Assembly (NCBI GenBank): GCA_018830105.1
Contig: JAHJTC010000014.1
Coordinates: 107,716 to 171,715, forward strand
Length of the DNA stretch: 64,000 bases
Source: Bacteroidota bacterium
Lineage (GTDB): Bacteria > Bacteroidota > Bacteroidia > Bacteroidales > F082
Direction of reading: 5' to 3'
Part shown: in pieces, positions 5,279 through 63,395 of the stretch
How positions within the stretch are numbered: position 1 is the stretch's first letter
Layout: each line of letters starts with the position of its first letter
Notes under the pieces: model-generated
The model's input: only the letters and a program-made list of their open reading frames with translations
Told to the model about the DNA's origin: nothing
The model's database searches: none
Translations under genes and position numbers: made by a program

Positions 5279-5288
5279 AGCAAAGGTT

Positions 5289-6671: not shown

Positions 6672-6727
6672 TGGATTTAGGTATTTGAATTGAGTTTTTT
6701 GAGCTTCATTTATTAAAATTTTGACAA

Positions 6728-6759: not shown

Positions 6760-6792
6760 GATTTATTTTGTACAAATACAAGCAGGGTCACA

Positions 6793-8049: not shown

Positions 8050-8083
8050 ATTTCATTCTTTTTAATTAGTAGAAGAGAAACTC

Positions 8084-9463: not shown

Positions 9464-9472
9464 AGGTTTACT

Positions 9473-10846: not shown

Positions 10847-12044
10847 GGTGTTTGTAAACTTTTTTGAGTGAAAAAGTGAGTATTATCATGGCCAGGATGC
10901 TGAACATGATTTCAATGAGGAATAAATTGGTATAACCCAGCACATCTGCAACTTTTCCGCTAAGAATAGCCATGATAAGACCGCTTAAGTGTGTGATTAC
11001 AATTTGTAGGGTGAAATCTGTTCCTTCTCGCCCACTACGCACAAGATCCATCGAGCTGGTGTAAATGGCAACAGTTGACATACCATAGGATGACCATAGT
11101 AAAAATATTCCCAAGTAAATTAAATGAATGCCAGGGGTTTGCATGCTGATAAAGTAAAAATAGACTCCGGCAAGCAAACTGAGTGTGAGGAAGCTGTATA
11201 AGGCAATTTTTTTGCCTGCTTTTTTGATGAACCAGCCGGCTCCCATGGCAGAAACTGCTGCTATGGCTGTGCCAAAGATTCCGGCCATAAATCCAATATC
11301 TTTGGCGGTATAACCTAAATCTACCAGCCAGGGTTTCAGCATGGCTAAAATCCCTATGATTCCTGAATAATAGAAGAATAGCAGTAAAATCCACCAAGGG
11401 ATGCCCGGTACTTTGAAAAATGATATCAAATCACCCAAACTAACTTTTAGCTTCTCCTTTTGCGCTTTGGGCTCGTTGAGTTTTACAAAGCGAAGAGGAA
11501 TTAGCGCGATTAGTACAAAAAGTGCCAGACAAATCAGCAAGTAATACCAGCCAAGATAGTAGTAAACAATTAAAAGCACGCCGCTTCCGAGTAGCGTGCC
11601 TATAAAGCTTCCTGCAGATTGCATGCTGTTGCCAAGACTTCGTTCGTTTTTTTTAAGTAAAAGAATAGCAAAGGCATCAGTAGCGATATCCTGGGTGGCA
11701 GATGCCGTAAAAGCGATCAGCATCAAGGCGACAATCAGCGTGAAATCAGTTTGTAAACTGAAAAAGCCAATATGTAAAATAATCAGGGCGTAAAAAAACT
11801 CCGAAAGATAAATCCAGCGCTTATACTGACGCATAGTTGATGCGTTATTGTCAACCAGAGGCGCCCATAAAAATTTCAGTATCCAGGGGAGCTTTACCAA
11901 TTGCAACAATCCAATCGACTCCAAAGAATAGTTTTCCTGGCGCATTATTACAGGCACCACGGTTGAAAAAAAACTCATGGGCACCGATTGTGCGATATAT
12001 AAGCTGAATAAGACTGGAAATTTAGGCCAGTTGGCTTGCTTCAT
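10836..12044 (-). CDS. MFS permease of the AmpG/PAT family
   Basis: 402 aa with about 12 predicted hydrophobic segments. The motifs LPWILKFLWAPLVD and ASATQDIATDAF align to E. coli AmpG (FKFLWSPLMD, CSASQDIVFDAW). Confidence 0.8.
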   Translation of the reverse strand: MKQANWPKFPVLFSLYIAQSVPMSFFSTVVPVIMRQENYSLESIGLLQLVKLPWILKFLWAPLVDNNASTMRQYKRWIYLSEFFYALIILHIGFFSLQTDFTLIVALMLIAFTASATQDIATDAFAILLLKKNERSLGNSMQSAGSFIGTLLGSGVLLIVYYYLGWYYLLICLALFVLIALIPLRFVKLNEPKAQKEKLKVSLGDLISFFKVPGIPWWILLLFFYYSGIIGILAMLKPWLVDLGYTAKDIGFMAGIFGTAIAAVSAMGAGWFIKKAGKKIALYSFLTLSLLAGVYFYFISMQTPGIHLIYLGIFLLWSSYGMSTVAIYTSSMDLVRSGREGTDFTLQIVITHLSGLIMAILSGKVADVLGYTNLFLIEIMFSILAMIILTFSLKKVYKHHEY

Positions 12045-12047
12045 GGA

Positions 12048-14144
12048 TTATATTTTTAAGGACAAATCAATGCCAAATTGAGCTGGCTTGCCCGATTGCA
12101 TATAACGGTTTCCAAGCGCTTCAAAATAGAATGAGGTGTATTCTTCACCAAAGATATTTTCTCCAAACAGCCTGATTTCAAAATTGTTCTTTGTGAAAGC
12201 AATATTTAAATCAATAAGGTTGTAGGCTTGTTGTGAAAAATTGTTTTGCTCGTTCCAGAACAGCTCTCCTGTGCTTTTCCATAGGCCTGTAATCCTGATT
12301 CGATCAATAAATCGCGTGTTGACTTTGATGGTCTTGTTGAGTTGTAAAGCCAGCGTATGTCTTGGCACATAGGGTAAAAAGTTGCCGTTGTAGTTTTTTG
12401 TAGAATCAACAATGTGCGATAGAAAACTGGCGTGGGTATAACCATAGGCTACAAATACTTCAAAATTTAAAGGAAGCGAGCTTTTTACTGACACTTCAAA
12501 TCCTTTGCTCAGGCTATGACCTGCATTTTTTAGCATCGAACCTCGCCCGCTGGGAACGGTTTGATAAATCTGCTGGTTAGTCCAGTCGATATAAAATAGC
12601 GAAAGCTCAGCAAAAGTTCTTTGCTCAAAGAGAGAAGTTTTGATGCCAAGTTCATAATTCCAGCTTTGTTCGGGCAAGAAAGTTAGATCTTCCGGACGCT
12701 CAAAAGTAGAGTTAAAACCTCCTGTCTTAAAACCTTTTGCAGCTAATGCATATACGGAAGTCTGATTGGTGAGGGCATATGAGAGGGCGATTTTTGGTGA
12801 AACCTCATTGTAGTTTAACAGGGGATAAGTGGTGTCAGCAATACTGTTATTCTGACCATTTCTTAACATATCGTATGTGTAGGATAGCTTGCTTTGCTCG
12901 AAGTCGATACGAATACCGGCAGTAAGTGTTAAGCCGTTGATCAGAAAGTTATCCAGCATCGATTGGTGGAATAAGGCAAAGCCCGAATTGATTTCGTCGT
13001 AGCTTTTAAACATCCGAAGCTTTTGAGCATAAACATCTACATCAACCGATTTATCAAGCAATTGCGTGAATCCAAAAACACCTGCAACCCATTGGTAATT
13101 TCCTGCATAGGCTGATTTAAATACAAACTCCTGCGAAAGCATGTGCTGCTGCTGTTTCTGCGTGACAAGGTAAAGAGAGTCAGCAGTAAAATCCTGGTCA
13201 ATTTCCTGAAAATCAACCAGTGCCTGATAACTTGTCGTAGATATCATTTCTATACGAGGGCCTTTGTAATTTAATATCAATCCATTAGATAATAAATTTC
13301 TTTCATAACCTGATGGCTGATTGTAATTGATAAGCTCAGCTTTTTCCAATGAATCATTATAAACCGCATAGGGATAACCACCTTGTTTGCTGTATTCGTA
13401 ACTGAGAATGTTAGACAACTGCCAGCGCTCGTTGATTTGCCAGCTCAAGCGGTTGCGCATTCCCAAAGCATCCATATAATCAACCTGTTCGTTATTATAG
13501 GTGTTGGTAAAGAAGCCATCGGTATGTCTGTAATTGAAAGACAGGCTATAGCCTAAGTCTTTACTGATTTTATTGTAGTGACTTAATCCGGCTGCATATT
13601 CTCCATAAGTGGCTGCAGAAAGCCTAAAACTGGTTTCCGGTTTTTCGCCGGGAGCACGCGTAATAATGTTGATAATGCCTCCCATGCTATTGCGTCCGTA
13701 AAGGCTTCCCTGAGGGCCACGCAACACTTCAACACGTTCAATATCAAAGAAGTCGAAATCAAAAGCTGATTTTTCAAAATAGGGAATTTGATCCACATAA
13801 AGTCCCACCGAAGGCGAATTGATACGCGATCCGATTCCCCGGATGTAAACCGGTGAAGTGAGCTTTGATCCGTAATCAGGCATAAATAAATTGGGCGTAA
13901 TGGCTGATATATCCTTGATGGACTCGATGCGGTTTTCCTTGAGGGTTCGCGCCGTAAGCACAGTAGCTGCCCCGGTAAGCGATTTTAGTTCAATCCGCTC
14001 TTTTGGTGCACGGATTGTGATTTCGTCCAGAACTATTTCAGGAACACCGGTGCTGTCGTTAAGAATAAAGTGCATTTGCTGGGCATGGATAGGGTGTCCA
14101 AAAGCCCAAGAAAATAAGATGATAAATATTATTAATCGGTACAT
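12048..14144 (-). CDS. TonB-dependent receptor (plug + 22-strand barrel type)
   Basis: Signal peptide, plug motifs (ITIRA.., RVEVLRGPQGSLYGRNSMGGIINIITR), and a C-terminal barrel ending in an aromatic-rich strand. I moved the start to the ATG (MYRLIIF); the tracked start is a TTG. Confidence 0.9.
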   Translation of the reverse strand: MYRLIIFIILFSWAFGHPIHAQQMHFILNDSTGVPEIVLDEITIRAPKERIELKSLTGAATVLTARTLKENRIESIKDISAITPNLFMPDYGSKLTSPVYIRGIGSRINSPSVGLYVDQIPYFEKSAFDFDFFDIERVEVLRGPQGSLYGRNSMGGIINIITRAPGEKPETSFRLSAATYGEYAAGLSHYNKISKDLGYSLSFNYRHTDGFFTNTYNNEQVDYMDALGMRNRLSWQINERWQLSNILSYEYSKQGGYPYAVYNDSLEKAELINYNQPSGYERNLLSNGLILNYKGPRIEMISTTSYQALVDFQEIDQDFTADSLYLVTQKQQQHMLSQEFVFKSAYAGNYQWVAGVFGFTQLLDKSVDVDVYAQKLRMFKSYDEINSGFALFHQSMLDNFLINGLTLTAGIRIDFEQSKLSYTYDMLRNGQNNSIADTTYPLLNYNEVSPKIALSYALTNQTSVYALAAKGFKTGGFNSTFERPEDLTFLPEQSWNYELGIKTSLFEQRTFAELSLFYIDWTNQQIYQTVPSGRGSMLKNAGHSLSKGFEVSVKSSLPLNFEVFVAYGYTHASFLSHIVDSTKNYNGNFLPYVPRHTLALQLNKTIKVNTRFIDRIRITGLWKSTGELFWNEQNNFSQQAYNLIDLNIAFTKNNFEIRLFGENIFGEEYTSFYFEALGNRYMQSGKPAQFGIDLSLKI

Positions 14145-14383
14145 AATCAGCAAACTATAAATATAATAAGTTAAATATCTTTCGCAATTGGTCGGATGGA
14201 AAGCTAATGTCGTGTCTGTGCTACTGTGTCGGTTAAGTCGTAGTAATTTTTTCTCAAATCAAAAAAGAAATTCTGCGCATAGCCCATGTTAAGTAAAGGA
14301 TTTATTTTGCAGAGTTAGGAAAAAAGAACAAGACTTGAGCCGGCTAAAGCTAGTGTTGACATGACACTAGGGAATAAAACTTA

Positions 14384-23644: not shown

Positions 23645-24856
23645 ATGAAAGAACCTTATATTCTTGATGTTACAAAAGATGTAAAATGGATTGGTGCAAT
23701 CGATCACGACATTGTCACTTTTGATGTGGTCATGGAAACTAAGTTTGGCACAACCTACAATTCCTATTTTATTGATGCGGATAAAAAAGCTGTTTTTGAA
23801 ACAGTAAAAGAAAGATTTTGGCCGGAGTATGAAGCGAAGCTCAGGGCTTTGATTAATCCTGAAGATTTAGCTTATATCATCATGAATCACACTGAGCCTG
23901 ATCATTCGGGCTGTGTGGGTAAGCTACTCGAAATTGCACCTCAGGCAGTTGTAGTAGGCACGGGTACAGCCATTCGGTATTTGAAAGACCTTGTTGCCGT
24001 TCCTTTTAAGAGCCTTCAGGTGAAGGATGGGATGGAGCTTGATCTTGGCAATAAAACTGTCCGCTTTGTCAGTGCGCCAAATTTACATTGGCCTGATACG
24101 ATGTATAGCTATCTGCAAGAGGATCAACTGCTTTTTACCTGTGACTCGTTTGGTGCGCATTACGCAGACGAACGCATGTTTGATGATGAAGTAGGAAATT
24201 GGGACGAGGCCTTTAAGTATTATTTCGATGTTATCCTCAAGCCTTTTAGTAAGTATATGCTGAAGGCCATCGAGAAAATCCGACCCTTGTCCATCAAGAT
24301 GATTTGTACGGGTCACGGACCTATTTTGCGCTCCAACTGGAAACGATATGTTGATTTGTCGGAGCAATTTGCCAATGAGGAATTGCAGATGCCCCAAACA
24401 AAACGGGTTTACATTCCTTATGTTTCGGCTTATCATAAAACGGGTCAACTTGCCGAGGCTATCGGCAAAGGTGTGGAGTCAGTTGAAGGACTTGAAGCCG
24501 TGGTTATGGATGTGGAGCATACACCACTGGGCGATATTGATATGCAGGTGTCTATGGCCAGCGGACTAATTATCGGTTGCCCTACCATCAATCAGAATAT
24601 CTTGCTGCCAATTTATCGCATATTTGCTGTTGTAAACCCATTGCGCGATAAAGGAAAACTTGCCGGAGGGTTTGGTTCTTATGGCTGGAGTGGCGAAGGA
24701 ATGAAAATTATCAGGACAAATCTGGAGAACCTGAAGCTCGCCTATACCGAAACGGATGTGTTCGTTAAGTTTAGTCCGAATGATGACGATTTGCAGCGTG
24801 CCGAAAACTATGGCCGCCGATTTGGAGAATTATTATTGGAAAAAGTAACAAATTAG
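23645..24856 (+). CDS. FprA-family flavodiiron protein (O2/NO reductase)
   Basis: 403 aa. Metallo-beta-lactamase-like domain with HTEPDHSG plus a C-terminal flavodoxin-like domain (GCPTINQN, GSYGWSGEG). Confidence 0.9.
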   Translation: MKEPYILDVTKDVKWIGAIDHDIVTFDVVMETKFGTTYNSYFIDADKKAVFETVKERFWPEYEAKLRALINPEDLAYIIMNHTEPDHSGCVGKLLEIAPQAVVVGTGTAIRYLKDLVAVPFKSLQVKDGMELDLGNKTVRFVSAPNLHWPDTMYSYLQEDQLLFTCDSFGAHYADERMFDDEVGNWDEAFKYYFDVILKPFSKYMLKAIEKIRPLSIKMICTGHGPILRSNWKRYVDLSEQFANEELQMPQTKRVYIPYVSAYHKTGQLAEAIGKGVESVEGLEAVVMDVEHTPLGDIDMQVSMASGLIIGCPTINQNILLPIYRIFAVVNPLRDKGKLAGGFGSYGWSGEGMKIIRTNLENLKLAYTETDVFVKFSPNDDDLQRAENYGRRFGELLLEKVTN

Positions 24857-31082: not shown

Positions 31083-31589
31083 ATGGAAACTGGAAAATCA
31101 GCTACTGACATTTTAAAAACTGCCATTTTATTAGAACGAAGAGGCAAAGCCTTTTACACACAAATTGCACGTCAAACAGAAAGTAAATCAGCCCGGAAAA
31201 TATTTGAAATGATGGCTGAAGAAGAAGATGAACATGTGGCTTTTTTGTCCAAACAGTATGCCTATTACACTAAAAACAACGCTTTTATGAAGAATGAACT
31301 TCATGAAGAAGTTGACGATACGGATGCGGTAAAGATTTTATCAGAGGAGATTAAGAAAGAAATTTCTGCTGCCAGTTTTGAAGCAGCCGCTATTTCTGCT
31401 GCCATCGACTTTGAAAATAAAGCCATTGAGGTGTATTCCAGTCGCGCCAAAGAAGCTACTGATGAAAACGAGAAAGAGATGTATCAAATGCTTGCCGATT
31501 GGGAGAAGACCCACCACACTTTGCTCCACCGTTTGAATGAAGACCTGAAGGAACAAATTTGGAACGATAATCAGTTTTGGCCATTTTAG
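31083..31589 (+). CDS. ferritin-like / rubrerythrin-family diiron protein (no rubredoxin domain)
   Basis: 168 aa. Two ExxH-type segments (EEEDEHVAFL; ADWEKTHHTLL) in a four-helix-like repeat. Confidence 0.75.
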   Translation: METGKSATDILKTAILLERRGKAFYTQIARQTESKSARKIFEMMAEEEDEHVAFLSKQYAYYTKNNAFMKNELHEEVDDTDAVKILSEEIKKEISAASFEAAAISAAIDFENKAIEVYSSRAKEATDENEKEMYQMLADWEKTHHTLLHRLNEDLKEQIWNDNQFWPF

Positions 31590-35271: not shown

Positions 35272-37581
35272 ATGGATATTTTTACAGCAATACTTTTATT
35301 ATTTCTGTTGGCAGCGGTGGCGCCTTTTATCAACGCTTCCTTTCCACGTATTTCCGGCTGGATTTTGTCATTGCCTCCGATTGGTATTTTTCTCTGGCTA
35401 TTAAGCCTTGTGCAAGGGGTCTCTCAGGGTGAAATTCACGCTTTTGCCATTGAATGGTTGCCGGCACTTGGCATCAATCTTATGTTCAGGCTGGATGGGT
35501 TGTCCCTGCTTTTTGCCCTATTGGTCACAGGAATAGGTGGTCTCATCATGATTTATGCTGGATATTATATGCGCAGTTACCAAAAGACAAATCGTTTTTT
35601 TGGTTACCTGGTGTTTTTTATGGCTAGTATGCTTGGTTTGGTAGCGGCAAACGATTGGATCAGTCTTTTCATGTTTTGGGAGCTAACCAGCTTAAGCTCT
35701 TTTCTGCTAATTGGTTTTAAGCATGAGAAGGAGGCGGCACGAAAAGCGGCCTTGCAGGCGTTGCTGATTACCGGATTGGGTGGCTTGGCCTTGTTGGCCG
35801 GGCTGATATTGATGTCATTACCCTATCAAAGTTTTGCTTTTGATGCGGTATTTAGTAATCCTGATTTGTTTACTCAAAGCCCGCTGTTTATTCCAGCCAC
35901 TGTTCTATTGTTAATAGGAGCCTTTACGAAATCGGCTATTTTCCCGTTTCATTTTTGGTTACCCGGAGCTATGCAAGCTCCCTCGCCCGTGAGTGCCTAT
36001 TTGCACTCGGCAACAATGGTTAAAGCAGGAATTTACCTGATTGCCCGTTTGCATCCAGTCATGGAAGATCAGGCTTTTTGGACTTATTCATTGTCGTTAT
36101 TTGGAGCTTTTACGATGTTCGTGGGAGCCTGGTTTGCTGTTTCACAACAGGATATTAAAAAAATCCTGGCTTATACAACCGTCAGTGCTCTAGGAACCTT
36201 GGTTTTGCTGATCGGAACTTCTACAGCATACTCAGTCACCGCAGCTTTGGTTTTTTTACTTGTTCATGCCTTTTACAAGGCTACTTTATTTATGATGGCT
36301 GGTAATATCGAAAAGAAAACATCAACAAGGGATATCAGGCTTTTAGGAGGGTTAAGTCATTTTATGCCAATAGCAGCTTTGATCTCGATGCTCGCCTTGT
36401 TATCCATGTCCGGAATTCCGCCAATGCTGGGATTTATTGGGAAAGAACTGATGTACGAAGCCAAGCTAAATGCGCCAAAAGCGGGTAATTTTATACTTTT
36501 AATGGGCTTTTTGGCAAATGCCTTTACCGTTTTTGTGTCAGCCCGAATTGCTTTTGATGTGTTTTATGGTAAATGCAAATGGCCTGGCCAACTTCCCAAA
36601 GAACCTGCACTCTCCTTATCGACCGGGCCAGCTGTTTTGGTCATTATCAGCCTGCTTTTTGGTGTTTTTCCTAACAGTGCAGCAGTACTTCTCGAACCGG
36701 CGCTCAAATCCATTTTGCCTGCACAGACGCTGATTCATTTGAAACTATGGCATGGTTTCAACGAGATACTTTTGCTGAGTGCTTTGACTGTTTTATTAGG
36801 TGCTGTTTTGTTTGCTTTTCGAACCAAAGTGATCGCCATGGTTGGATTGTTGAATGGCAAGTATTTCAACCTGAAGTTATCAGAACGATTTTTTTTAGGA
36901 ATAGATTTATTTATTCGATTGACGAAGAAAAAAACAACATTTATACAGCATGGATACCACCGGTTTTATTTAATGACCATACTTATCACTGCTTCAGTTT
37001 TGCTTTTCTTAAGCATTTTCAAATTGTCGTTCCCCCTAGCTGAACAGCTGGAACTCAATAGTTGGACCATAATATTGCTGGCAGCAGCTGTCTTAATTAT
37101 GGTTGGAGCTATAGCTACTGTGGTAGCTCAAAGCAGGCTTGTTGCGCTGGTGTCAACGGGGATTTCAGGGATTGGAATTACAGTTATTTTCGTGCTCTTT
37201 AGTGGTGTTGATTGTGCAATTACCATGATAATGGTAGAAACCTTAACGATTGTAATTGGAGCAATGGTGGTTTATCATCTGCCCAAATACCTGAGTTTTT
37301 CCAACAAATTTGCCCGATGGCGCGATATGAGTATAGCCCTGTTATTTGGGGTGGTAATGGGAACACTTGCTTTTTTGTCGGCCAACAAAAAACCAATGGA
37401 AAAAGTTTCAGATTATTACCTCGAAAACAGCTTATCGAAAGGCTATGGAGAAAATGTTGTCAATGTTATTCTTGTTGATTTTAGAGCCTTGGATACGCTT
37501 GGAGAGATCATTGTACTGGGGCTTGCAGCGATAGGAATTGTGGCACTTCTGACGTTAAACAAAACGAAATCTAAAAATTAA
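35272..37581 (+). CDS. mrpA: Na+/H+ antiporter (Mrp/Mnh) subunit A
   Basis: 769 aa polytopic protein, NuoL-like ([25 protein letters not shown]) with a C-terminal MrpB-like extension. Confidence 0.9.
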
Positions 37582-38000
37582 TGGAGACAGAAATACTAAA
37601 AATAGCAGCCAAACACCTTAAGCCGTTTCTGTTGATTCTGAGCCTGTTTGTGTTTTACAGAGGGCACAATGAGCCGGGCGGAGGGTTTATTGGCGGACTC
37701 ATGGCTGGGATGGCTTTGGTGTTGTATGCTGGTGCTTTTGGTGTAGAAGAAGCTAAAAAGCTACGACTTGCGAAACCCTTGTTTTTTATTGGATTAGGCT
37801 TTGGCCTGGCTTTGATTAGCAGCCTGCTGGGCTTGTTGGTCGGGCAGGGGGGCTTTATGACGGCTGTTTGGAATCAATGGCAGTTTGCTGGTTTCTCATT
37901 GAAGCTCGGAAGTCCTTTATTGTTTGATTTGGGAGTGTATTTCGTGGTAGCCGGGATGTTGGTAAAAGTGATTTTTTCTGTAATGGAGGAGGATGTATGA
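37581..38000 (+). CDS. mrpB: Mrp antiporter subunit B
   Basis: 139 aa with [13 protein letters not shown], the MnhB motif. Confidence 0.85.
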
Positions 38001-38341
38001 ATTTGATAATAGCTGTTTTGATTGGGTTATTATATGCAACAGGAGCCTATTTGCTGCTGCGAAGGAGTATTGTAAAGCTCGTGTTGGGTATTTTGTTTTT
38101 GAGTTATGCTACTAATTTGCTGTTGTTTTTTACCGGTGGATTAAGTTTGATGAGTCCTGCTTTTGATGATGGAAGCTATCCTGATTTGAGCCAACTTAGC
38201 GATCCGCTGCCACAAGCCCTGATCCTGACGGCCATTGTGATCGGTTTTGGCCTCGCAGCATTTAGTATGGTGCTTATTTATAGGTTTTTTAAAGAAACCG
38301 GTACGGTTGATCTGGATGAACTTTCTGATAATAAGAAATGA
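37997..38341 (+). CDS. mrpC: Mrp antiporter subunit C (NuoK-like)
   Basis: 114 aa, three TM helices, with a [16 protein letters not shown] motif. Confidence 0.88.
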
Positions 38342-39840
38342 TGATACTGTTTTTACCAATATTAATCCCACTGCTGACAATAATACTGTTGCTAATTGTC
38401 AGAAAAAAATTGGCTTATCAACATATATTGAGTGTGTTGTCCGTAGTAGCTCAATTGATTGTAGCACTGTCAATTTTCAACAAACTTGGCGAGTCAACGA
38501 TATTGGTTGCTCAGGCTGGAGGCTGGCCTGCTCCTTTTGGAATTAGCTTTTTAGCGGATTACACAGCAACGATATTGTTAATTGCTGTTGCTTTACTTGC
38601 TTTGCCTATTGTAATATACAGCATTGGATTTATTGATAAAGTGCGCCAGCAGGGTGGGTTGTTTGTTTTATATCAGGGATTGATTTTGGGAGTGAATGGC
38701 GCTTTTCTTACTGCTGATATCTTTAATCTCTATGTTTGGTTCGAGGTCATGTTAATCTCTTCTTTTGTGCTTATTACGCTTGGCGCAGCCAAACAGCAAT
38801 TGCGTGGTTCTGTGAAATACCTGGTCATGAATCTGCTCGGATCTTCGCTGTTTGTTGCAGCTATTGGTCTGACGTACAGTCAGCTGGGAACACTTAATAT
38901 GGCTGATATTGCGGATAAGATAATGAAACAAGGCAGTACTCCCTTGTTGAACAGCGCCATTATGTTGTTCTTTATCGCTTTTGGAATAAAAGCAGCTGTT
39001 TTCCCGTTTTTCTTTTGGTTGCCAGCGTCCTATCCCACACCCCCAATCGCAATTACTGCATTTTTTGGGGCAACTCTTACAAAAGTTGGTGTTTATGTAA
39101 TGTTGCGATTCTACAGCCTTTTTGCCAATATGGATGAGGCTTTTTGGCAGCCGATTATATTTATTGTTGCCGGCCTCACTATGCTTTTTGGTGTGCTAAT
39201 GGCCGCCTCATCTTACGATATTCGTAAAATCCTATCCTTTCATATCATCAGTCAAATTGGGTATATGTTAATGGGAATAGGCTTGTTTTCTTTAATAGGC
39301 CTTGCCGGGGCACTGTTTTTTATTGTGCATAATATGTTTTCGAAAACAGCTGCTTTTATGGCAGCAGGTTTGATAAAACGTTTCAAAGGCAGCTACGATC
39401 TCAATATGCTTGGCGGGCTCTATAAATCTAAGCCCATACTGGCGTTTCTGTTTTTAATCCCGGCACTTTCTCTGGCAGGAATACCCCCGACATCAGGTTT
39501 TTTTGGAAAGCTTTTTCTAGTGATGGGAGGTTTTCAGTCGGGTGAATGGCTTATTACGATCGTGGCTATTGTCGTTAGTATTTTAACCCTGTTTTCGATG
39601 ATTAAAATTTGGAATGAGGCAGTATGGAAACCGGCAGAAGAGAAAGCAGTTGAGCCTTCAAATCAAAAATTGAACCCCTTGATTATTGCAGCATCATTTG
39701 CGATGACTGTTTTTACGTTATTTCTGGGGCTAACGGTATTTTGGACTTTTGACAGTTTTACAGAAGCTGCTGCACAGTTGCTTAATCCGCAGCTGTATAT
39801 TGATGCTGTGTTGAATAATAATAGGCCTGCACTAAACTAA
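38338..39840 (+). CDS. mrpD: Mrp antiporter subunit D (NuoN/M-like)
   Basis: 500 aa with FGIKAAVFPFFFWLP. ATGA overlap with mrpC. Confidence 0.92.
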   Translation: MMILFLPILIPLLTIILLLIVRKKLAYQHILSVLSVVAQLIVALSIFNKLGESTILVAQAGGWPAPFGISFLADYTATILLIAVALLALPIVIYSIGFIDKVRQQGGLFVLYQGLILGVNGAFLTADIFNLYVWFEVMLISSFVLITLGAAKQQLRGSVKYLVMNLLGSSLFVAAIGLTYSQLGTLNMADIADKIMKQGSTPLLNSAIMLFFIAFGIKAAVFPFFFWLPASYPTPPIAITAFFGATLTKVGVYVMLRFYSLFANMDEAFWQPIIFIVAGLTMLFGVLMAASSYDIRKILSFHIISQIGYMLMGIGLFSLIGLAGALFFIVHNMFSKTAAFMAAGLIKRFKGSYDLNMLGGLYKSKPILAFLFLIPALSLAGIPPTSGFFGKLFLVMGGFQSGEWLITIVAIVVSILTLFSMIKIWNEAVWKPAEEKAVEPSNQKLNPLIIAASFAMTVFTLFLGLTVFWTFDSFTEAAAQLLNPQLYIDAVLNNNRPALN

Positions 39841-39847
39841 CAAACTG

Positions 39848-40219
39848 ATGAAGAGAAAAGAAAATAGAGTAATTGGCAGAACAAAGCGGTTTCTGAAAAG
39901 ACTGGTTGGTATTGTGCAATTTGTCATATTCTATATCATAGAGCTTGTCGTTTCGAGCAGCATATTGGCTTACGACATCATGAGGCCACGCAAAAGTTTT
40001 CAGCACGGAATCGTTGCAGTTGATATCGATATGAAATCAGATACGGCACTGTTGGCGCTGATTAATTTTGTTTCGATGACCCCCGGTAGTTTGGTAGTTG
40101 ACCTGAGTAAAGATAAAAAAACACTTTTTATACACACGATGTATTTGGATGATGTTGAGGAATTTAAAAAGATTTTCAAGCATGATTTCCAAAGACGTAT
40201 CGAAAAAGTATTTCAATAA
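39848..40219 (+). CDS. mrpE: Mrp antiporter subunit E
   Basis: 123 aa. Contains SMTPGSLVVD, similar to the MnhE motif (LTPGT), and sits at the expected operon position. Confidence 0.8.
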   Translation: MKRKENRVIGRTKRFLKRLVGIVQFVIFYIIELVVSSSILAYDIMRPRKSFQHGIVAVDIDMKSDTALLALINFVSMTPGSLVVDLSKDKKTLFIHTMYLDDVEEFKKIFKHDFQRRIEKVFQ

Positions 40220-40518
40220 TGGAAACAACATACAGTTTATTTGATTTTGCAATTACTTTCTCCTTTTTTAGCATTACAGTGGCATTTTTAGCAGTGCTTT
40301 ACAGGTTAATAAAAGGGCCTGAAATAACCGACAGATTAATCGTTTTAGATCTTGCGGCTTCATCGCTGATAGGGTTGGTTCTGCTAGTAATTATTTTCTC
40401 CGGAAAATCAGTATATCTCAATGTGGCACTAATCACAGGCCTGATTATTTTTATGGGAAATATTGCTTTTGCGCGTTATCTCAAAAAAACCGTTAGCAAT
40501 GAGAGAAACAATAGTTAG
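40219..40518 (+). CDS. mrpF: Mrp antiporter subunit F
   Basis: 99 aa. GPEITDRLIVLD resembles the MnhF motif. Confidence 0.85.
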   Translation: METTYSLFDFAITFSFFSITVAFLAVLYRLIKGPEITDRLIVLDLAASSLIGLVLLVIIFSGKSVYLNVALITGLIIFMGNIAFARYLKKTVSNERNNS

Positions 40519-40864
40519 TTTGTTTTTGATTTTAGGAGCCTTATTTACCTTGGTTTCAGCACTTGGAATTATCAGGCTTCATGATGTTTATATGCGGATG
40601 CATGCCATTACAAAATCTTCGTCCTTAGCCACGATTTTGTTTGTTATAGCGATGATTATTGCAGTCCCTGGATGGAGGGTTTTATTGGGAGGGCTTTTGC
40701 TAATCGCCTTTGTTACCGCTACTGCACCCATTTCAACACATGTACTGGCCAGGGTTTCTTTTTTGTTGGGCATCAAGATGGCTCCGGGATTTAAACGAAA
40801 CGATTTGGAGACTTACAATAAGAAGAAAGATGAGGTTTCCAAATCTTTTAATCAAAAGAATTAG
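40499..40864 (+). CDS. mrpG: Mrp antiporter subunit G
   Basis: LGIIRLHDVYMRMHAITKSS resembles the MnhG motif. I prefer the start at the internal ATG (MRETIVSLF). Confidence 0.85.
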   Translation: MRETIVSLFLILGALFTLVSALGIIRLHDVYMRMHAITKSSSLATILFVIAMIIAVPGWRVLLGGLLLIAFVTATAPISTHVLARVSFLLGIKMAPGFKRNDLETYNKKKDEVSKSFNQKN

Positions 40865-54402: not shown

Positions 54403-56967
54403 TCAAAATCTATACCTTATTCCCATGTCAAATGTGCGGCCAAAAGACCAAAATCCTCTAAAATCTTCTAAATTATGCTGAGTTCCATCCTCACCTTTAA
54501 TGATGTAGGTGTCGTCCAACAGATTATTGCAGTTTACATACAATGTTACTAATTGTTTGTTCAGGGGGTAATTAAATGAGAGGTGCATATTGATCAAAGT
54601 GCTTGATGGTATGCGATAGCTCTGATTTCTATCGGTTTCATCCTGACGACCGGAGGGGTCAAAATCTGCATAATGCTGATCGGAATAAGTGGCGTTAATC
54701 GCTAAATTGAAAAAATCCAGCAGAATAAAATCTGCAAAAACGGCTGTTTGAAACTGGGGTTGTCCGCCAACTTTCAATCCGTTGGCAAACACGCTTACTG
54801 TGTCCACTGCAACATCAAGGTGATTAAATAAGGTAGCCTGAACATCATTTTTCCATTTCCAATCGCCCGAAGTAATGAAAAAACCTGCTTTAAAATTTCT
54901 TGATATTTTGGTGTTGGCTTCCAATTCAATTCCGCGGTGTAAAGCATTTAACCCTTTTACCATGGCGCGACTTTGCTGGTCGTTCTCCAACTGCACGTAT
55001 TCGTTCGACAAAAATGAAACATCTTCCCAAAGGGTATAATATCCATTTATATTTACCGAAAATTGCTCATTGCGGAAGCCGTATCCAGTTTCAATACTGC
55101 TGACCTTTTCGTTTTTCGGGTCTTTGACAGGTGTATTGCTGAAGTTTCCAAAAACGAACTTATAATAAGGTGCCTTGCTAAAATGGCCCGCATTGAAGTA
55201 AAAATGTTGTTTTTCGTCTAAATTGAAATTGAGCCCTCCTTTTATGTCGAACCCACTGATGCCAACCCACTCACTCCACTTATTATTTGGGTAATTGTAA
55301 CTGTCATGTCTTTTGTATTGGTTCTCAGAAAGGGTTCCGCCAGCAAAAAAAGTAAATGCTCCGGTTTTATATTCCCATTGGGCAAACAAGCTACTTTGGT
55401 GCAAAAGGGCTCCATTATTTATTCTGATCAAATCTCCGGGCATTTTAACTTGTTCACGGCCAGCTACTCCTGCTGCCGACCAACTGAAATCGTCTAAATA
55501 AAAATTTCCTCCCAACAGATCATCAACACGCTGCGTAAGACTGCTTTGAAAATAGCGGTAATGGAGACCGGCAGTGATTTTTTGATTTTGTGTTAAATTG
55601 ATTTCGGCCGAGCTCATTACACCTCCCCACATATGACTGGCCAAAAAGTTGGTTTGCACCAATTTGGAGTAACCAGTTACGGTTTCGCCATTGGCTAGGG
55701 TATAGGAGTCAGTGTTTTGTGCATTGTAGTTGTAGATCGACTCCCAATCAATTTGTCCTGAAGGATTCCGGAAATCAAATACGCCAGGCCCATAGTTGAA
55801 GCTGTCGCTCCATTTTCCGCCTCCCCATCCCGGCGAGAGATAAGCGGCAGATGAAAGCAAAACTTTGTCGCTGATATCCCAATAGTGGTTTATGGAGAAA
55901 TGGGGTTTGTGATAAAAGTTCTCTGAAGCATTTTTAATTTGCCCGTTATAACTGCCCCAGTCTTTGTTAAACTTAGTGCCATGAAGGCTAATATCTTGTT
56001 CGCTGAGCTTCAAATTTCGTTGACCATGCCGCTCCGGGCCTCCCAACAAACTAAGTACGATCCTCTGATTCTTGCCAATTTCGCGCGCAGCACTTATAAA
56101 ATAGGCCCAGGCATCAACATAGGTAGCATCAATATAGCCCTCGCCTTTTAGTCGCGATCCCAGCAGTGAAATACTCCAGCCGTTTTCCATTCTGCCTGTT
56201 TGATAGGCGAAAGTGAGCTTTTGGTTGCCATAACTTGTTGTAGAAACACTTAAAAAACCAGCCTTTTTAGGATATGCCAGATTGGTTAAAATATTTACGG
56301 TGCCACCCACTGAATTTAGTGCAACTTTTGAAGCACCTATACCTCTTTGGACCTGAATACCTGCGGTTGCTTCGGTGAGTCCAAGCCAGTTATTCCAATA
56401 GATTAAACCGTTTTCGGCGCCGTTGATCGGCACTCCATTTAATAGAACGGCAATATTTTCTTGTTTAAAACCACGAATAGATAAACTGGCATCGCCCGAA
56501 CCGCCTCCATCCCGGCTGGCAAAAACACCGGGAATACGATCCATGATGGCAGGAAATGGCTTGTCGCCCAGTTGTGTACTGATTTTCTCAGCATCTATCT
56601 TGTTAAAAGATAATGGATTATACCTTTCCTGAGCGATATCAGCAAGTATGCTGACCTCCTGCAAATTGATATTTTGGGGTTTTAACTGGATCTGGATCGG
56701 AAAATCAGTGTCTTGATTTATGGCTATTTCAGCTTGCTCAAATCCAAGATGCGTGATAAGAAGTGTTGCTGGTAATTTTGCGTTTTCAAGCTTGAAATAG
56801 CCTTGAAAATCTGTACTAACTCCCACCGCTTGACTACTGATGTTGACGTTTACAAAAGGCAAAGACTCGCCGGTGTTTTGGTGCGTAATAAATCCATCAA
56901 TTTGATGCTGTGCCGTGGCGGTTCCCAACCCGAAAAGAACAAATAGTAAAAAACAAACTGTTTTCAT
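54403..56967 (-). CDS. TonB-dependent receptor with CarboxypepD_reg-like N-terminal domain, FMN-riboswitch controlled
   Basis: MKTVCFLLFVLFGLGTATA signal peptide, GFITHQNTGESLPFVNVNI, plug (GGSGDASLSIRGF), and a barrel ending in IRYRF. The start is moved to 56967 because the tracked 5' extension covers the riboswitch terminator. Confidence 0.9.
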   Translation of the reverse strand: MKTVCFLLFVLFGLGTATAQHQIDGFITHQNTGESLPFVNVNISSQAVGVSTDFQGYFKLENAKLPATLLITHLGFEQAEIAINQDTDFPIQIQLKPQNINLQEVSILADIAQERYNPLSFNKIDAEKISTQLGDKPFPAIMDRIPGVFASRDGGGSGDASLSIRGFKQENIAVLLNGVPINGAENGLIYWNNWLGLTEATAGIQVQRGIGASKVALNSVGGTVNILTNLAYPKKAGFLSVSTTSYGNQKLTFAYQTGRMENGWSISLLGSRLKGEGYIDATYVDAWAYFISAAREIGKNQRIVLSLLGGPERHGQRNLKLSEQDISLHGTKFNKDWGSYNGQIKNASENFYHKPHFSINHYWDISDKVLLSSAAYLSPGWGGGKWSDSFNYGPGVFDFRNPSGQIDWESIYNYNAQNTDSYTLANGETVTGYSKLVQTNFLASHMWGGVMSSAEINLTQNQKITAGLHYRYFQSSLTQRVDDLLGGNFYLDDFSWSAAGVAGREQVKMPGDLIRINNGALLHQSSLFAQWEYKTGAFTFFAGGTLSENQYKRHDSYNYPNNKWSEWVGISGFDIKGGLNFNLDEKQHFYFNAGHFSKAPYYKFVFGNFSNTPVKDPKNEKVSSIETGYGFRNEQFSVNINGYYTLWEDVSFLSNEYVQLENDQQSRAMVKGLNALHRGIELEANTKISRNFKAGFFITSGDWKWKNDVQATLFNHLDVAVDTVSVFANGLKVGGQPQFQTAVFADFILLDFFNLAINATYSDQHYADFDPSGRQDETDRNQSYRIPSSTLINMHLSFNYPLNKQLVTLYVNCNNLLDDTYIIKGEDGTQHNLEDFRGFWSFGRTFDMGIRYRF

Positions 56968-56982
56968 AATGATGATTTGTTT

Positions 56983-57014
56983 AAAATAAAAAACCCCGCA
57001 ATAAACTACGGGGC
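56983..57014 (-). terminator. expression-platform terminator of the FMN riboswitch
   Basis: Minus strand reads UGCCCCG-UAGUUUAUUG-CGGGGU followed by UUUUUAUUUU. It ends about 15 nt before the receptor ATG. Confidence 0.7.
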
Positions 57015-57101
57015 ATATTACTTTAAACAAAATACATTACAATAATACCAATGATATCCATAGCAAACTACTATAGACTCAAGCATTATAATGCATGATG
57101 T

Positions 57102-57220
57102 TATTCTCCTCCCATCCAGACTATAACTGTCGGTAACGTAATTGAAACGTTTCAATCCTGCATTTGCAGGACTCGCGGACTTTACCGCCGATCGGGAATT
57201 TCACCCTGCCCCGAAGAATA
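57102..57220 (-). promoter_or_regulatory. FMN riboswitch (RFN element) aptamer
   Basis: Minus strand reads UAUUCUUCGGGGCAGGGUGAAAUUCCCGAUCGGCGGUAAAGUCCGCGAGUCCUGCAAAUGCAGGAUUGAAACGUUUCAAUUACGUUACCGACAGUUAUAGUCUGGAUGGGAGGAGAAUA. It is near-identical to the conserved RFN cores of the B. subtilis ribD leader (CUUCGGGGCAGGGUGAAAUUCCCGACCGGCGGUA ... GCCGACAGU..AAGUCUGGAUGGGAGAAG), with closing helix UAUUCUUC/GGAGAAUA. Confidence 0.92.
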
Positions 57221-57229
57221 ATTACGCGG

Positions 57230-57237
57230 CAAAAATA
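57230..57237 (-). promoter_or_regulatory. candidate -7 promoter box (TATTTTTG) for the riboswitch transcript
   Basis: Matches TAnnTTTG on the minus strand, 9 nt upstream of the P1 helix and downstream of the trxB-like stop (57295). Confidence 0.45.
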
Positions 57238-57294: not shown

Positions 57295-58254
57295 CTAAAT
57301 GTTCACAGCTGAGCTACTTTTGGTTTTCTTCTGATTGATGTATTCCATCGCGTTTAGAGCTGCAATGGTGCCATCGGAAACAGCTGTGGTAATCTGCCTG
57401 AAACGTTTTGCCAGTGCATCACCTGCTGCAAACACTCCGTTTATATTAGTCTGAAGTCTTTCGTTGGTAATGATTTCGTTGCGTTCGTTCAATTCAATAC
57501 ATTTTCCTTGCAAAAAATCTGTATTTGCTTCGTAACCAATAAAGACGAAAACACCATCGAGTTTTTGTTCGTACTGCTCCTTGGAATTGATGTTTTCGAT
57601 TGTAATAGAGTTTATTTTGTCGCTTCCATTGAACGACAGGATGCGGCTGCTCAACTTAATATCAATTTTTTCGTGCTTCAGCACTTCCTCCTCAGCCTCT
57701 TTAAATGCCTGAAAATGATCAAACTGATGTATAAGTGTCACTTTTGAAGCATATTTAGTTAATGAAACAGCTTCTTCGAGCGCAGTATTGCCGCCGCCAA
57801 CAACTGCTATTTCTTTATCCTGAAAAAAATCACCGTCGCAAGTAGCACAGTAGGAAATGCCTCGGCCTTTGAAGCTTGCTTCACCTGGCACGCCAAGCGT
57901 ACGAGAACGGCCTCCTGTAGCCAATATTATGGTGTCGGCAGTAAATGTTTTACCATTGGATAAGCCAATGCTTTTTGTCTCGGATTCGAAATCGATAGTT
58001 GAAATTGAGATTCCGGACATAATATTACAGCCAAACTTTTTTGCTTGATTACGCATATTGTTGCTGAGTTCATAACCAGAAATTGATTCAAAGCCCGGAT
58101 AATTGGCGATTTCATGTGTTAAATTCATTTGTCCGCCAGCCACACCCGAATCTACAATAAGCGTTTTGGCTTTGGCACGCGAGAGATAAATTCCTGCTGT
58201 TAGTCCGGCAGGTCCAGCGCCGATAATGATGCTGTCAAAATGTTTTGTTTCCAT
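57295..58254 (-). CDS. thioredoxin-reductase-like flavoprotein lacking the NADPH-binding HRRxxxR signature
   Basis: 319 aa with GAGPAGLTAG (FAD), the redox CATC (SYCATCDG), and GGGNTALEEA. Where E. coli TrxB has HRRDGFRA, this protein has HQFDHFQA (57709-57729). Confidence 0.85.
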   Translation of the reverse strand: METKHFDSIIIGAGPAGLTAGIYLSRAKAKTLIVDSGVAGGQMNLTHEIANYPGFESISGYELSNNMRNQAKKFGCNIMSGISISTIDFESETKSIGLSNGKTFTADTIILATGGRSRTLGVPGEASFKGRGISYCATCDGDFFQDKEIAVVGGGNTALEEAVSLTKYASKVTLIHQFDHFQAFKEAEEEVLKHEKIDIKLSSRILSFNGSDKINSITIENINSKEQYEQKLDGVFVFIGYEANTDFLQGKCIELNERNEIITNERLQTNINGVFAAGDALAKRFRQITTAVSDGTIAALNAMEYINQKKTKSSSAVNI

Positions 58255-62527: not shown

Positions 62528-62881
62528 TTAGTTTTTTAGTAAAACGTCTTCAATGGCTTTTTTCATGGTGTCTTTTGGAAGTGCACCCATGGCCATTTGT
62601 GGCTGACCATCTAGTGGGCAAAAAAGCAAAGACGGAATGCTTCTGATTCCAAAAGCACCGGCAAGCTCTGTTTCAGCTTCAGTATCAATTTTATAGATGT
62701 TAATCTTGCCTTCGTATTCTTTTGAAAGCTCTTCAAGAATAGGAGCAACCATTTTACAGGGCTGACACCAATCGGCATAAAAGTCGATCACACAAGGTAA
62801 GTCACCTTCAAATTTCCACTCTTTGTTCTGTTCGAAATTAAATACTTTTTGTAAAAAAGTTTCTTTTGTTAAATGTTCCAT
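62528..62881 (-). CDS. thioredoxin (cytoplasmic, WCQPC)
   Basis: 117 aa with VIDFYADWCQPCKMVAPIL and no signal peptide. Confidence 0.9.
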   Translation of the reverse strand: MEHLTKETFLQKVFNFEQNKEWKFEGDLPCVIDFYADWCQPCKMVAPILEELSKEYEGKINIYKIDTEAETELAGAFGIRSIPSLLFCPLDGQPQMAMGALPKDTMKKAIEDVLLKN

Positions 62882-62912
62882 ATTAATTATTTTCGGGATT
62901 CAATGTTTATTA

Positions 62913-63395
62913 TTATTTTTTAAGTAATTGCTCGTCAATAATTTGACGATACATTTCTTCGGTAAGCGCTCCGGCCTGCATCATTGGCTGACCTTCAAGG
63001 GGTGTAAACAAGACCGCAGGAATACTCTGAACACGAAATACTGCTGCGAGCTTTTGTTCTTCATCTACATCAATTTTATATATGTGTATTTTCCCTTCAT
63101 ATTCTTTCGCCAGTTTTTCCATGATAGGAGCAATCTTCCGACAAGGAGCGCACCAATCAGCATAAAAATCAATCACGGCGGGTAACTCGCCTTCATAAAC
63201 CCAGTTTTGTGGGCTTTCTTCAAAATTCCACACTTTGTCGACAAAAGTTTCATAAGTGAGATACTCAGGTTTCCCGCTCGTATCTTCTACTTTTAGCTCC
63301 TCGCTGTTATTGGTTTGTTCACCGGTGGTGGTGCCGCAAGCTGTCGTTAGAAGGAATAATCCGGTAAATAGAAAAAATAATTTTTTGATCATCAT
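62913..63395 (-). CDS. exported thioredoxin lipoprotein (WCAPC)
   Basis: 160 aa. Signal peptide and lipobox (LLTTAC). VIDFYADWCAPCRKIAPIM. Paralogous to the downstream gene. Confidence 0.9.
   Translation of the reverse strand: MMIKKLFFLFTGLFLLTTACGTTTGEQTNNSEELKVEDTSGKPEYLTYETFVDKVWNFEESPQNWVYEGELPAVIDFYADWCAPCRKIAPIMEKLAKEYEGKIHIYKIDVDEEQKLAAVFRVQSIPAVLFTPLEGQPMMQAGALTEEMYRQIIDEQLLKK

Follow-up and report, generated by a model that had tools for sequence, protein, structure and literature searches.

In a 64,000-nucleotide stretch of a Bacteroidota contig (hereafter the window), a canonical FMN riboswitch with its own promoter quite probably gates a TonB-dependent receptor that imports flavin across the outer membrane. 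A complete aptamer and its covariation, a promoter box, a terminator, the complementarity needed for an antiterminator, a transporter fold and the linkage of the RFN element to the receptor across relatives were all observed. FMN binding by the element is putative and the direction of switching is predicted. The most likely function of the receptor is FMN-repressed import of flavin through the outer membrane, with the substrate assigned from the regulation alone, and among candidates for an outer-membrane flavin gate in bacteria, this receptor family is currently the strongest.

The FMN riboswitch and its expression platform

At gathering thresholds, a cmscan search of the whole window returned RF00050 as the sole Rfam match. 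The match identifies an FMN riboswitch aptamer (RFN element), with six helices around the ligand junction, at 57222-57100 on the minus strand (108.8 bits; gathering score 66.2; E = 2.2e-24). It lies 42 bits above the threshold against which the preliminary description of this DNA had proposed to judge it, and it covers model positions 1-138 of 138, so the aptamer is not truncated. The RFN cores claimed in that description were all found on the minus strand, and the closing helix P1 forms as it proposed, between UAUUCUUC (57220-57213) and GGAGAAUA (57109-57102). In the cmscan alignment, the window matches every junction position that the Rfam consensus marks as conserved (upper case); it departs from the RF00050 consensus only in one P-stem pair and in the P5 stem-loop at the periphery.

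The structure is also maintained among relatives. Under a purpose-built covariance model the window aptamer scores 121 bits. In an alignment of 76 RFN elements, paired cells amount to 96.7%, and 21 of the 38 pairs show compensatory changes. None of 500 shuffles attained the observed covariation values, and slid controls were only 32-57% paired. RNAalifold predicted 38 pairs and showed compensatory changes in 18. Across 19 aligned orthologs, the junction nucleotides do not vary. The P5 differences of the window are changes in the stem and the peripheral loop, and the orthologs keep a consensus P5. Many of the orthologous RFN elements carry an extra stem inside the P2 loop.

A putative Bacteroidota-type -7 promoter box, TATTTTTG, was recognised by sequence and by conservation in orthologous loci at 57237-57230 on the minus strand, 9 nt before position 57220, the spacing given in the preliminary description. 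The motif TAnnTTTG, the established consensus of the Bacteroides -7 promoter box, occurs in 73 of 74 orthologous loci no more than 50 nt upstream of the aptamer, compared with 2.7% of 56-nt windows drawn at random.

In the predicted fold of the 263-nt leader, the six-helix aptamer is followed by a terminator (-90.4 kcal/mol; z = -6.7 relative to 200 shuffles), and a spacer hairpin fills the interval between the two in both the MFE and the centroid fold (57089-57042, minus strand). The intrinsic terminator, given by a terminator scan as well as by the leader fold, spans 57014-56983 on the minus strand and consists of a stem (57014-56993) and a U-tract (56992-56983). In the terminator scan, the stem has 9 pairs, 5 of them G-C, and a 4-nt loop, with TTTTTATTTT directly 3'. 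A terminator about 15 nt before the ATG had been claimed; the U-tract stops 15 nt short of the start codon, at 56983, and the stem ends 25 nt from it. In the 210 nt that follow the aptamer, 61 of 74 loci have a hairpin with a U-tract at -8 kcal/mol or lower, compared with 6 of 150 control windows (4%). The other 13 of the 74 leaders show no clear intrinsic terminator and may work in a different way.

Complementarity points to the aptamer 5' segment CUUCGGGGCA (57216-57207, minus strand), made up of the P1 5' strand and J1/2, as the proposed antiterminator strand. This segment and the terminator 5' arm UGCCCCGUAG (57015-57006, minus strand) pair at 9 of 10 positions, which gives the arm two alternative partners, its own 3' arm or the aptamer 5' segment. 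The duplex amounts to -15.0 kcal/mol in the window and to a mean of -18.5 kcal/mol across 50 loci, against -9.5 kcal/mol for shuffled arms and -5.8 kcal/mol for the 3' arm; a GCCC(C/U)G terminator arm is present in 50 of the 74 loci. By computed folds and complementarity, the expression platform thus contains both of the mutually exclusive pairings, terminator and antiterminator. The terminator conformer is the more stable of the two in the window (-90.4 kcal/mol, compared with -78.5 kcal/mol for the antiterminator conformer), so that a switch would have to operate kinetically.

We propose that the riboswitch leader would be transcribed from its own Bacteroidota-type promoter. When FMN is plentiful, P1 would close and lock the aptamer 5' segment, the GC hairpin with its U-tract would form, and the transcript would end ~15-25 nt short of the start codon. 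Under FMN scarcity, the 5' segment would instead pair with the terminator 5' arm, no terminator would arise and receptor mRNA would be made. The receptor, energised by TonB, would then move flavin (riboflavin, FMN or FAD) over the outer membrane, and uptake would be finished by an inner-membrane carrier encoded elsewhere.

The receptor and its linkage to the RFN element

The receptor gene runs from an ATG at 56967 to 54403 on the minus strand and comprises 854 codons and a stop; an independent gene call in a JGI metagenome gives the identical 854-aa product. The protein is laid out as a signal peptide (residues ~1-19), a CarboxypepD_reg-like domain (23-106), a plug (117-223) and a beta-barrel (~235-854). 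Pfam assigns PF13715 to the N-terminal domain and PF07715 (Plug) to residues 117-223 (43.3 bits against 23.9). The N-terminus MKTVCFLLFVLFGLGTATAQ is a Sec signal peptide, modelled by AlphaFold2 as a helix over residues 2-16, and the C-terminal residue is Phe, an aromatic beta-signal.

The earlier assignment as a TonB-dependent receptor is borne out by the fold. The AlphaFold2 model (pLDDT 84.4, pTM 0.78) shows an unbroken strand array over residues ~235-854. Foldseek against the PDB gave 378 matches at E <= 0.001, and the best 50 of the 378 are all TonB-dependent transporters. The best match is PqqU (9c4o; E = 8.9e-39, TM 0.80 on the target), and TM values on FhuA, FecA, BtuB and PqqU are 0.74-0.83; identity to the TonB transporters among these matches is generic, at 12-17%. 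The segment LQEVSIL (102-108), a candidate TonB box that resembles those of Bacteroidota, sits in the sole long low-confidence linker of the model (98-109), which is disordered. Across 50 homologs, L102 is invariant and E104 nearly invariant.

The receptor family has no curated name. Searches with Pfam and NCBIfam returned plug, N-terminal-domain and TonB-receptor models only, and a sequence search of the PDB gave no match at E <= 0.01. The BtuB equivalog cut-offs were missed (TIGR01779, 37.7 against 599.7; NF007926, 26.7 against 836), with matches in the plug region only. Being a beta-barrel, the receptor falls outside the RibU, PnuX/RibM, ImpX, RibN, RfnT, RibZ, RibXY and RfuABCD families.

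To the question, raised in the preliminary description, of whether RFN elements are conserved upstream of receptor orthologs, the answer is clear. Upstream DNA was available for 75 orthologous loci at species level, and in 74 of them an RFN element lies on the same strand just 5' of the receptor. The covariance model yielded 76 RFN matches in 1.05 Mb, each on the receptor strand and immediately upstream of the receptor, with none elsewhere in that DNA; in a single orthologous locus (L078) it found no RFN element. A simple regular expression for the RFN cores recovered only ~50 of the 75 loci, and Rfam and the covariance model recovered the missed elements: among the loci undercalled by the expression, 18 of 21 carry a full-length RF00050 of 93-112 bits by Rfam. 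No regulatory element other than RFN was detected across the receptor loci.

An independent metagenome scan, with a pattern composed of the RFN 5' core and TAnnTTTG, added 31 further RFN-receptor pairs, with identities of 38-65%. The linkage is not peculiar to the source genome. The pattern is unspecific, and its matches outside the receptor family were mostly ribD, ribB and RibU-like genes of a taxon that could not be assigned; the scan found no inner-membrane partner of the receptor. The isolate and contig names of the MAGs suggest hosts from sludge digesters, sediments, lakes and groundwater.

Downstream genes and alternative readings

The preliminary description had called the receptor stand-alone. 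This stands in so far as there is neither a SusD partner nor a rib gene, and fails in that three same-strand genes come after it with no intervening terminator, encoding a second TonB-like barrel, a nucleotide pyrophosphatase and a PhoD phosphatase. A Pfam survey of the window ORFs of at least 110 aa found no rib gene and no dedicated riboflavin-transporter family, in agreement with the claim that no rib gene or flavin transporter is adjacent. Nor did Pfam give a SusD-family match downstream of the receptor, in the window or across the loci. An MFS gene of unassigned substrate lies in a heme cluster ~43 kb from the receptor.

The first of the downstream genes encodes OMP1081, a 1081-aa TonB-like outer-membrane barrel (54208-50963, minus strand; Pfam CarboxypepD_reg, Plug and OMP_b-brl_4) that is found downstream of the receptor in 36 loci. 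Next comes a 406-aa type I nucleotide pyrophosphatase/phosphodiesterase (NPP; 50874-49654, minus strand; PF01663, 290 bits), which carries the lipoprotein signal LTGLISC and is downstream of the receptor in 39 loci. The start of the third gene, which encodes a 449-aa PhoD-like phosphatase with a Sec signal in its translation (49657-48308, minus strand; PF09423), overlaps the NPP stop by 4 nt. No terminator was found in the gap between receptor and OMP1081 in the window, and a terminator after the receptor stop occurs in 5 of 75 loci, which equals background. The receptor gene is probably linked transcriptionally to its downstream neighbours, and OMP1081 is possibly co-transcribed with it by read-through. 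A candidate internal -7 box, TACTTTTG, lies at 54255-54248 on the minus strand, 47 nt before the start of OMP1081; in the window's clade, such a box stands 43-48 nt before the OMP1081 ATG in 17 loci and the window.

It is possible, though rather unlikely, that the receptor gene heads a larger unit for the salvage of flavin nucleotides, a reading that refines the best explanation and does not exclude it. FAD and FMN would enter by the receptor, and possibly by the second barrel too; NPP would cut FAD into FMN and AMP, and PhoD or PAP2 would then dephosphorylate the product to riboflavin for inner-membrane uptake. The order of receptor, second barrel (OMP1081 or its paralog TBDR2) and NPP, with or without PhoD, recurs in at least 39 loci and survives broken upstream synteny in four of them (L028, L034, L041 and L051), but the module is missing from about a third of the receptor loci, and in one locus (L085) the corresponding syntenic slot is occupied by OMP1081-NPP, while receptor and RFN element are both absent. 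Read-through is favoured by the background level of terminators after the receptor and by tandem TBDR2 loci, where the gap is without a promoter box in 11 of 14, whereas the fixed -7 box before OMP1081 in the window's clade suggests an independent promoter. Both NPP and PhoD carry export signals, and PAP2, another phosphatase, follows directly in L024, L026 and L032; however, NPP homologs of 51-53% identity occur in unrelated contexts (a kynurenine cluster, and beside miaA), and a TonB barrel with NPP and PhoD also resembles a generic organophosphate-scavenging set. A full salvage route in anaerobic Bacteroidales, with entry by the receptor, periplasmic stripping by NPP and PhoD or PAP2, and riboswitch-controlled read-through of the whole set, is a tentative and rather unlikely proposal. 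In view of the conserved internal promoter box and of L085, OMP1081-NPP-PhoD was downgraded as an obligatory part of the riboswitch unit.

We consider it decidedly unlikely that the riboswitch control is real but the cargo is something other than flavin, namely a nutrient in demand when flavins are short, such as iron, another metal or a different redox cofactor. There is a precedent in RfnT: RfnT-like transporters, predicted to carry riboflavin from their RFN/rib association, import copper and not riboflavin (PMC6362234), and thus substrate inference from regulation can fail. Iron and riboflavin regulation are, moreover, intertwined in several bacteria (PMC6041382). However, the riboswitch-gated TonB transporters for B12 (BtuB) and B1 (OMthi) carry the riboswitch's own vitamin (PMC6977713, PMC5613172), and RFN is the only regulatory element detected with the receptor, to which it is linked in 74 of 75 species. 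The nearest structures among the Foldseek matches listed are siderophore, copper and PQQ transporters, and some members of the receptor family are labelled iron-complex receptors in source databases, but the Foldseek similarity is generic at 12-17% identity and the database labels were assigned automatically. Unlike riboflavin, B12 exceeds the size that porins admit; at 376 Da, riboflavin is small enough for the general porins of many bacteria, so the need for a dedicated TonB gate is not obvious.

It is highly improbable that the element is an FMN-class specificity variant, of the rare kind with altered ligand specificity described in Clostridia, sensing a flavin analogue or breakdown product that the receptor handles: the P5 stem-loop of the window is off consensus, but its differences concern only the stem and peripheral loop and orthologs have a consensus P5, while the conserved junction positions are all matched in a hit 42 bits above the gathering threshold and are invariant in the 19 aligned orthologs.

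Known systems and biological meaning

The proposed FMN-repressed flavin import by the receptor has parallels in vitamin uptake systems already described. OMthi (BT2390), paired with PnuT in Bacteroides thetaiotaomicron, is, like the receptor, a Bacteroidota TonB-dependent transporter with no SusD partner (PMC5613172, PMC6977713, 10.1101/867226). OMthi is a thiamine transporter behind a TPP riboswitch, and in both cases the switch senses the cofactor form of the vitamin. It differs from the receptor in having a TPP and not an FMN riboswitch and in that no Pnu-type inner-membrane carrier adjoins the receptor here; transport by OMthi rests on genetics, that by the receptor on regulatory inference. 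No sequence-level family relationship between the two was detected. BtuB is a vitamin-specific TonB transporter as well, repressed by its cofactor via a leader riboswitch (AdoCbl), and it has the same plug-in-barrel fold (Foldseek 1nqe, E = 2.3e-30). However, the receptor is far below the BtuB model cut-offs, and control of E. coli btuB is mainly translational, whereas the receptor leader has an intrinsic terminator.

PqqU (YncD), the best Foldseek match, imports the small redox cofactor PQQ (~330 Da) with TonB, an example of a TonB transporter specialised in a redox cofactor of this size. It differs from the receptor in its 14% identity, in having no N-terminal CarboxypepD_reg-like domain and in having no riboswitch control, and its similarity to the receptor is no better than that of FhuA or FecA. 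The classical FMN regulon (ribDEAHT and ribB; the RibU, PnuX/RibM, ImpX, RibN and RibXY carriers) shares the aptamer family and an OFF-switch through a terminator, and its rib, ribB and RibU-like targets were also recovered in the metagenome scan. The target described here differs in being an outer-membrane TonB transporter.

TonB transporters are absent from surveys of riboflavin transporters (PMC4418817, PMC6593275) and, as targets, from surveys of riboswitch regulons too; the regulon survey lists no FMN riboswitch for Bacteroidaceae (PMC3766115). The preliminary description knew of no characterised flavin-specific TonB receptor. Our literature search likewise found none, nor one controlled by an FMN riboswitch, though an earlier mention in the subscription literature is possible; the receptor family is unmentioned in the searchable literature on riboflavin transporters and riboswitch regulons. 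To our knowledge, the bacterial riboflavin transporters described so far all act at the inner membrane, and passage of flavins through the Gram-negative outer membrane is left, presumably, to porins.

A TonB family under FMN-riboswitch control in ~75 Bacteroidales species provides a testable candidate for this missing outer-membrane step and, if true, would extend the paradigm of BtuB (B12) and OMthi (B1) to vitamin B2. FMN riboswitches exist in Bacteroidales lineages outside Bacteroidaceae, and in the loci sampled they control genes of uptake and not of biosynthesis. If the salvage route were true, it would bring the first outer-membrane flavin transporter and, as another first, a "flavin utilisation locus". 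Members of anaerobic communities trade flavins both as vitamins and as shuttles for electrons. A flavin gate of high affinity would matter for cross-feeding in these communities, and it may offer an entry for flavin-analogue antibacterials such as roseoflavin.

FMN riboswitch leader and its linkage to the receptor

In a cmscan search of the whole 64-kb window, a single match reached the gathering threshold: the FMN riboswitch (RFN element, RF00050) at 57222-57100 on the minus strand, with 108.8 bits (E = 2.2e-24, all 138 model positions; gathering score 66.2). On this strand, the P1 helix pairs UAUUCUUC (57220-57213) with GGAGAAUA (57109-57102), and a -7 box, TATTTTTG, lies at 57237-57230, 9 nt 5' of P1. 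A terminator scan located an intrinsic terminator with a stem at 57014-56993 (minus strand; 9 pairs, 5 G-C) followed by TTTTTATTTT, and 15 nt separate the end of the U-tract from the ATG at 56967. The 263-nt leader folds into a six-helix aptamer plus terminator at -90.4 kcal/mol (z = -6.7). The preliminary description had named RFN cores with a closing helix, a -7 box 9 nt upstream and a terminator about 15 nt before the ATG; its account of the window is confirmed as accurate, with every quoted motif present and the Rfam score bearing out the riboswitch class.

To place the window among related genomes, we compared the best 80 of 309 genome matches in GTDB, at species level (44-78% identity), whose hosts are Bacteroidales, Lentimicrobiaceae or unclassified Bacteroidota MAGs. 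A regular expression for two RFN cores matched about 50 of the 80 loci at a fixed upstream distance, and its misses arose because in many orthologs the P2 loop contains an additional stem, which covaries. Rfam, run on 21 loci missed or half-missed in this way, found full-length RF00050 in 18 (93-112 bits). A covariance model trained on 19 elements that Rfam had confirmed gave 76 matches over 1.05 Mb, all on the strand of the receptor and directly upstream of it, and none elsewhere. The co-occurrence of RFN elements with orthologous receptors, which the preliminary description had made a test of its reading, is thus seen in 74 of the 75 loci with upstream DNA (80 less five without), including one element clipped by a contig end and one broken by an N-run. 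The sole exception is locus L078 (1700-2200), whose receptor has no RFN element upstream; there, a crcB-like fluoride-channel gene stops ~70 nt short of the receptor.

In an alignment of the 76 elements, 96.7% of cells are paired, with compensatory changes at 21 of 38 pairs. None of 500 shuffles matched any observed measure, and slid controls were 32-57% paired. The extra stem in the P2 loop (6 bp, A3 columns 28-65) occurs in about 22 of the 75 receptor-linked elements (L071, L047, L027, L034, L035, L039, L023, L037 and others), with compensatory changes at every pair; the element in the window lacks it.

An independent scan of metagenome contigs, with TAnnTTTG followed by the RFN 5' core as the pattern, returned 119 stretches, 109 of them with a downstream ORF. 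The receptor family accounts for 31 of these 109 (38-65% identity), all with the RFN-linked paralog as best match. The remaining ORFs are mostly ribD, ribB or RibU-like, and their taxa are unassignable.

Predicted switching mechanism

TAnnTTTG is the -7 consensus of Bacteroidota. In 73 of 74 loci, the 50 nt preceding the aptamer contain such a box, compared with 2.7% of random windows. A hairpin of -8 kcal/mol or below with a U-tract, at most 210 nt past the aptamer, is present in 61 of 74 loci versus 6 of 150 control windows. In 50 loci, the 5' arm of the terminator reads GCCC(C/U)G, which is complementary to an invariant 5' segment of the aptamer, CUUCGGGGCA, which comprises the P1 5' strand and J1/2; in the window, the proposed partner of this segment is the minus-strand arm UGCCCCGUAG. 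The antiterminator duplex has a mean energy of -18.5 kcal/mol; shuffled arms give -9.5 and the 3' arm -5.8.

The leader has the design of a classical OFF switch, with predicted FMN binding and response. Upon binding of FMN, the 5' segment would be sequestered in the aptamer, leaving the terminator free to form and to end transcription ahead of the ORF. In the absence of FMN, the same segment would pair with the terminator arm and transcription would run on. For the leader in the window, the terminator conformer is the more stable of the two (-90.4 versus -78.5 kcal/mol for the antiterminator conformer), and therefore the choice between them must be made kinetically, as it is by other riboswitches that act on transcription.

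Genes around the receptor

The receptor had been called stand-alone, which is not strictly the case. A Pfam survey found no rib gene in the window, but three genes follow 3' of the receptor on the same strand: OMP1081 (a 1081-aa TonB-like barrel), NPP (a lipoprotein type I nucleotide pyrophosphatase) and PhoD (a secreted phosphatase). Among the compared loci, the next gene is OMP1081 in 36 and a paralogous receptor (25-42% identity) in about 15; NPP then follows in 39 and PhoD sometimes.

One possible reading is that the receptor and its downstream genes are one unit, a flavin-nucleotide salvage locus in which FAD would be converted to FMN and then riboflavin in the periplasm. We regard this attractive refinement as rather unlikely. 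In its favor, the arrangement outlasts upstream synteny in L028, L034, L041 and L051, and terminators past the receptor stop are no commoner than background (only 5 of 75 loci), so read-through into the downstream genes is likely. In addition, three related loci carry a PAP2 membrane phosphatase of ~205 aa directly after the receptor in place of OMP1081-NPP (L024 6027-6641, L026 8717-9340, L032 4520-5143), so this position has also recruited a phosphoesterase of another, unrelated kind. However, a -7 box that keeps a constant distance of 43-48 nt upstream of OMP1081 in the clade of the window argues against obligatory coupling, as do NPP homologs of 51-53% identity that lie in a kynurenine cluster or beside miaA. 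Furthermore, L085 (5624-11227) has OMP1081-NPP in the syntenic slot of the window, with two thioredoxins, WbqC, 7TM-HD and NlpC/P60, and OMP1081-NPP directly after NlpC; the 284-nt gap there holds neither an RFN element nor the 854-aa receptor. The RFN element goes with the receptor and not with the downstream module, and receptor and riboswitch together act like a cassette that can be inserted or deleted.

In two Saprospirales loci (L081 10001-16048, L082 316-6363), an NPP homolog 53% identical to that of the window heads a kynurenine-pathway cluster of tryptophan dioxygenase, amidohydrolase, kynureninase and FAD monooxygenase, a context that hints at a tie of the NPP family to NAD metabolism. 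In three further species (L070 8597-10012, also L072 and L077), a protein of 471 aa that matches no Pfam family and lacks an obvious signal peptide is almost certainly co-transcribed with the receptor under the riboswitch, because it starts 23 nt past the receptor stop.

Directly upstream of the riboswitch promoter lies a thioredoxin reductase, an FAD enzyme (57295-58254, minus strand), with no terminator predicted in between; it holds this position in 26 loci, a synteny that may be coincidental. A few kb beyond it are two thioredoxin genes (62528-63395, minus strand). Elsewhere, a tight minus-strand cluster at 7036-14153 encodes a 701-aa TonB receptor (12048-14153), an MFS transporter (10836-12044), a HemN-like radical-SAM enzyme (9473-10846), a protoporphyrinogen-oxidase-like flavoenzyme (8084-9463) and ferrochelatase (7036-8049). 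The combination of late heme-synthesis genes with two transporters, one for the outer and one for the inner membrane, suggests porphyrin or heme-precursor salvage. The window also contains a complete trpEGDCFBA operon (277-6791, minus strand), an Mrp-type multisubunit cation/proton antiporter cluster (35272-40864, plus strand), a flavodiiron-like protein with an ODP metallo-beta-lactamase fold and flavodoxin (23645-24856, plus strand) and rubrerythrin (31083-31589), the last consistent with an anaerobe host.

Receptor protein, cargo and prior literature

The receptor ORF has 854 codons (56967-54403, minus strand), and a public metagenome gene call has the identical product. Pfam places a CarboxypepD_reg-like N-terminal domain at residues 23-106 and a TonB-receptor Plug at 117-223, and no barrel model matched. 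An AlphaFold2 model from 50 homologs is confident (pLDDT 84.4, pTM 0.78) and shows a signal helix, a beta-sandwich, a disordered linker (98-109), the plug and a large barrel with terminal Phe. LQEVSIL in the linker is TonB-box-like, with L102 invariant and E104 nearly so. Among the matches listed, Foldseek against the PDB returned TonB-dependent transporters only, led by PqqU (E = 8.9e-39), YncD, FhuA, FecA and BtuB. ORF, Plug and fold thus agree with the TonB-dependent receptor first described; the fold is certain, yet the protein has no specific relative, as all these matches are at 12-17% identity. No PDB chain was found by sequence at E <= 0.01 and no NCBIfam family matched, BtuB models scoring 27-38 bits against cut-offs of 600-836. 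The family is large (>1000 database clusters at E <= 1e-10), the top 120 clusters are all ~855 aa with 48-100% identity, and its database names are automatic only.

On regulatory logic alone, the cargo is most likely a flavin, because the gene would be on at low FMN and, in the two known precedents, riboswitch-gated TonB transporters carry the cognate vitamin: B12 for BtuB, and thiamine for OMthi in Bacteroides (PMC5613172, PMC6977713). The caveat is real that such reasoning may mislead, as with RfnT, which was assigned riboflavin by the same kind of inference and imports copper instead (PMC6362234). A Pfam survey of the window ORFs found no rib gene or dedicated riboflavin-transporter family, as the preliminary description had remarked for the adjacent genes, and its proposal of a flavin importer has the support that computation alone can give.

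A survey of bacterial riboflavin transporters mentions neither TonB nor the outer membrane (PMC4418817), and a gut-microbiome vitamin reconstruction has inner-membrane carriers only (PMC6593275). The RegPrecise riboswitch regulons list no FMN riboswitch in Bacteroidaceae, and elsewhere its targets are biosynthesis genes and inner-membrane transporters only (PMC3766115). For the outer membrane, a review of B-vitamin uptake names BtuB and OMthi alone (PMC6977713). We found no paper joining FMN riboswitch, Bacteroidetes and TonB in a search of work outside subscription-only sources, where a prior mention is possible. Riboswitch-gated TonB transporters for vitamins are a known design, to which this vitamin, this riboswitch class and this receptor family are new. 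The case for an RFN-gated receptor is robust and clearly testable, and it fills a recognised gap, extending the existing paradigm rather than breaking it.
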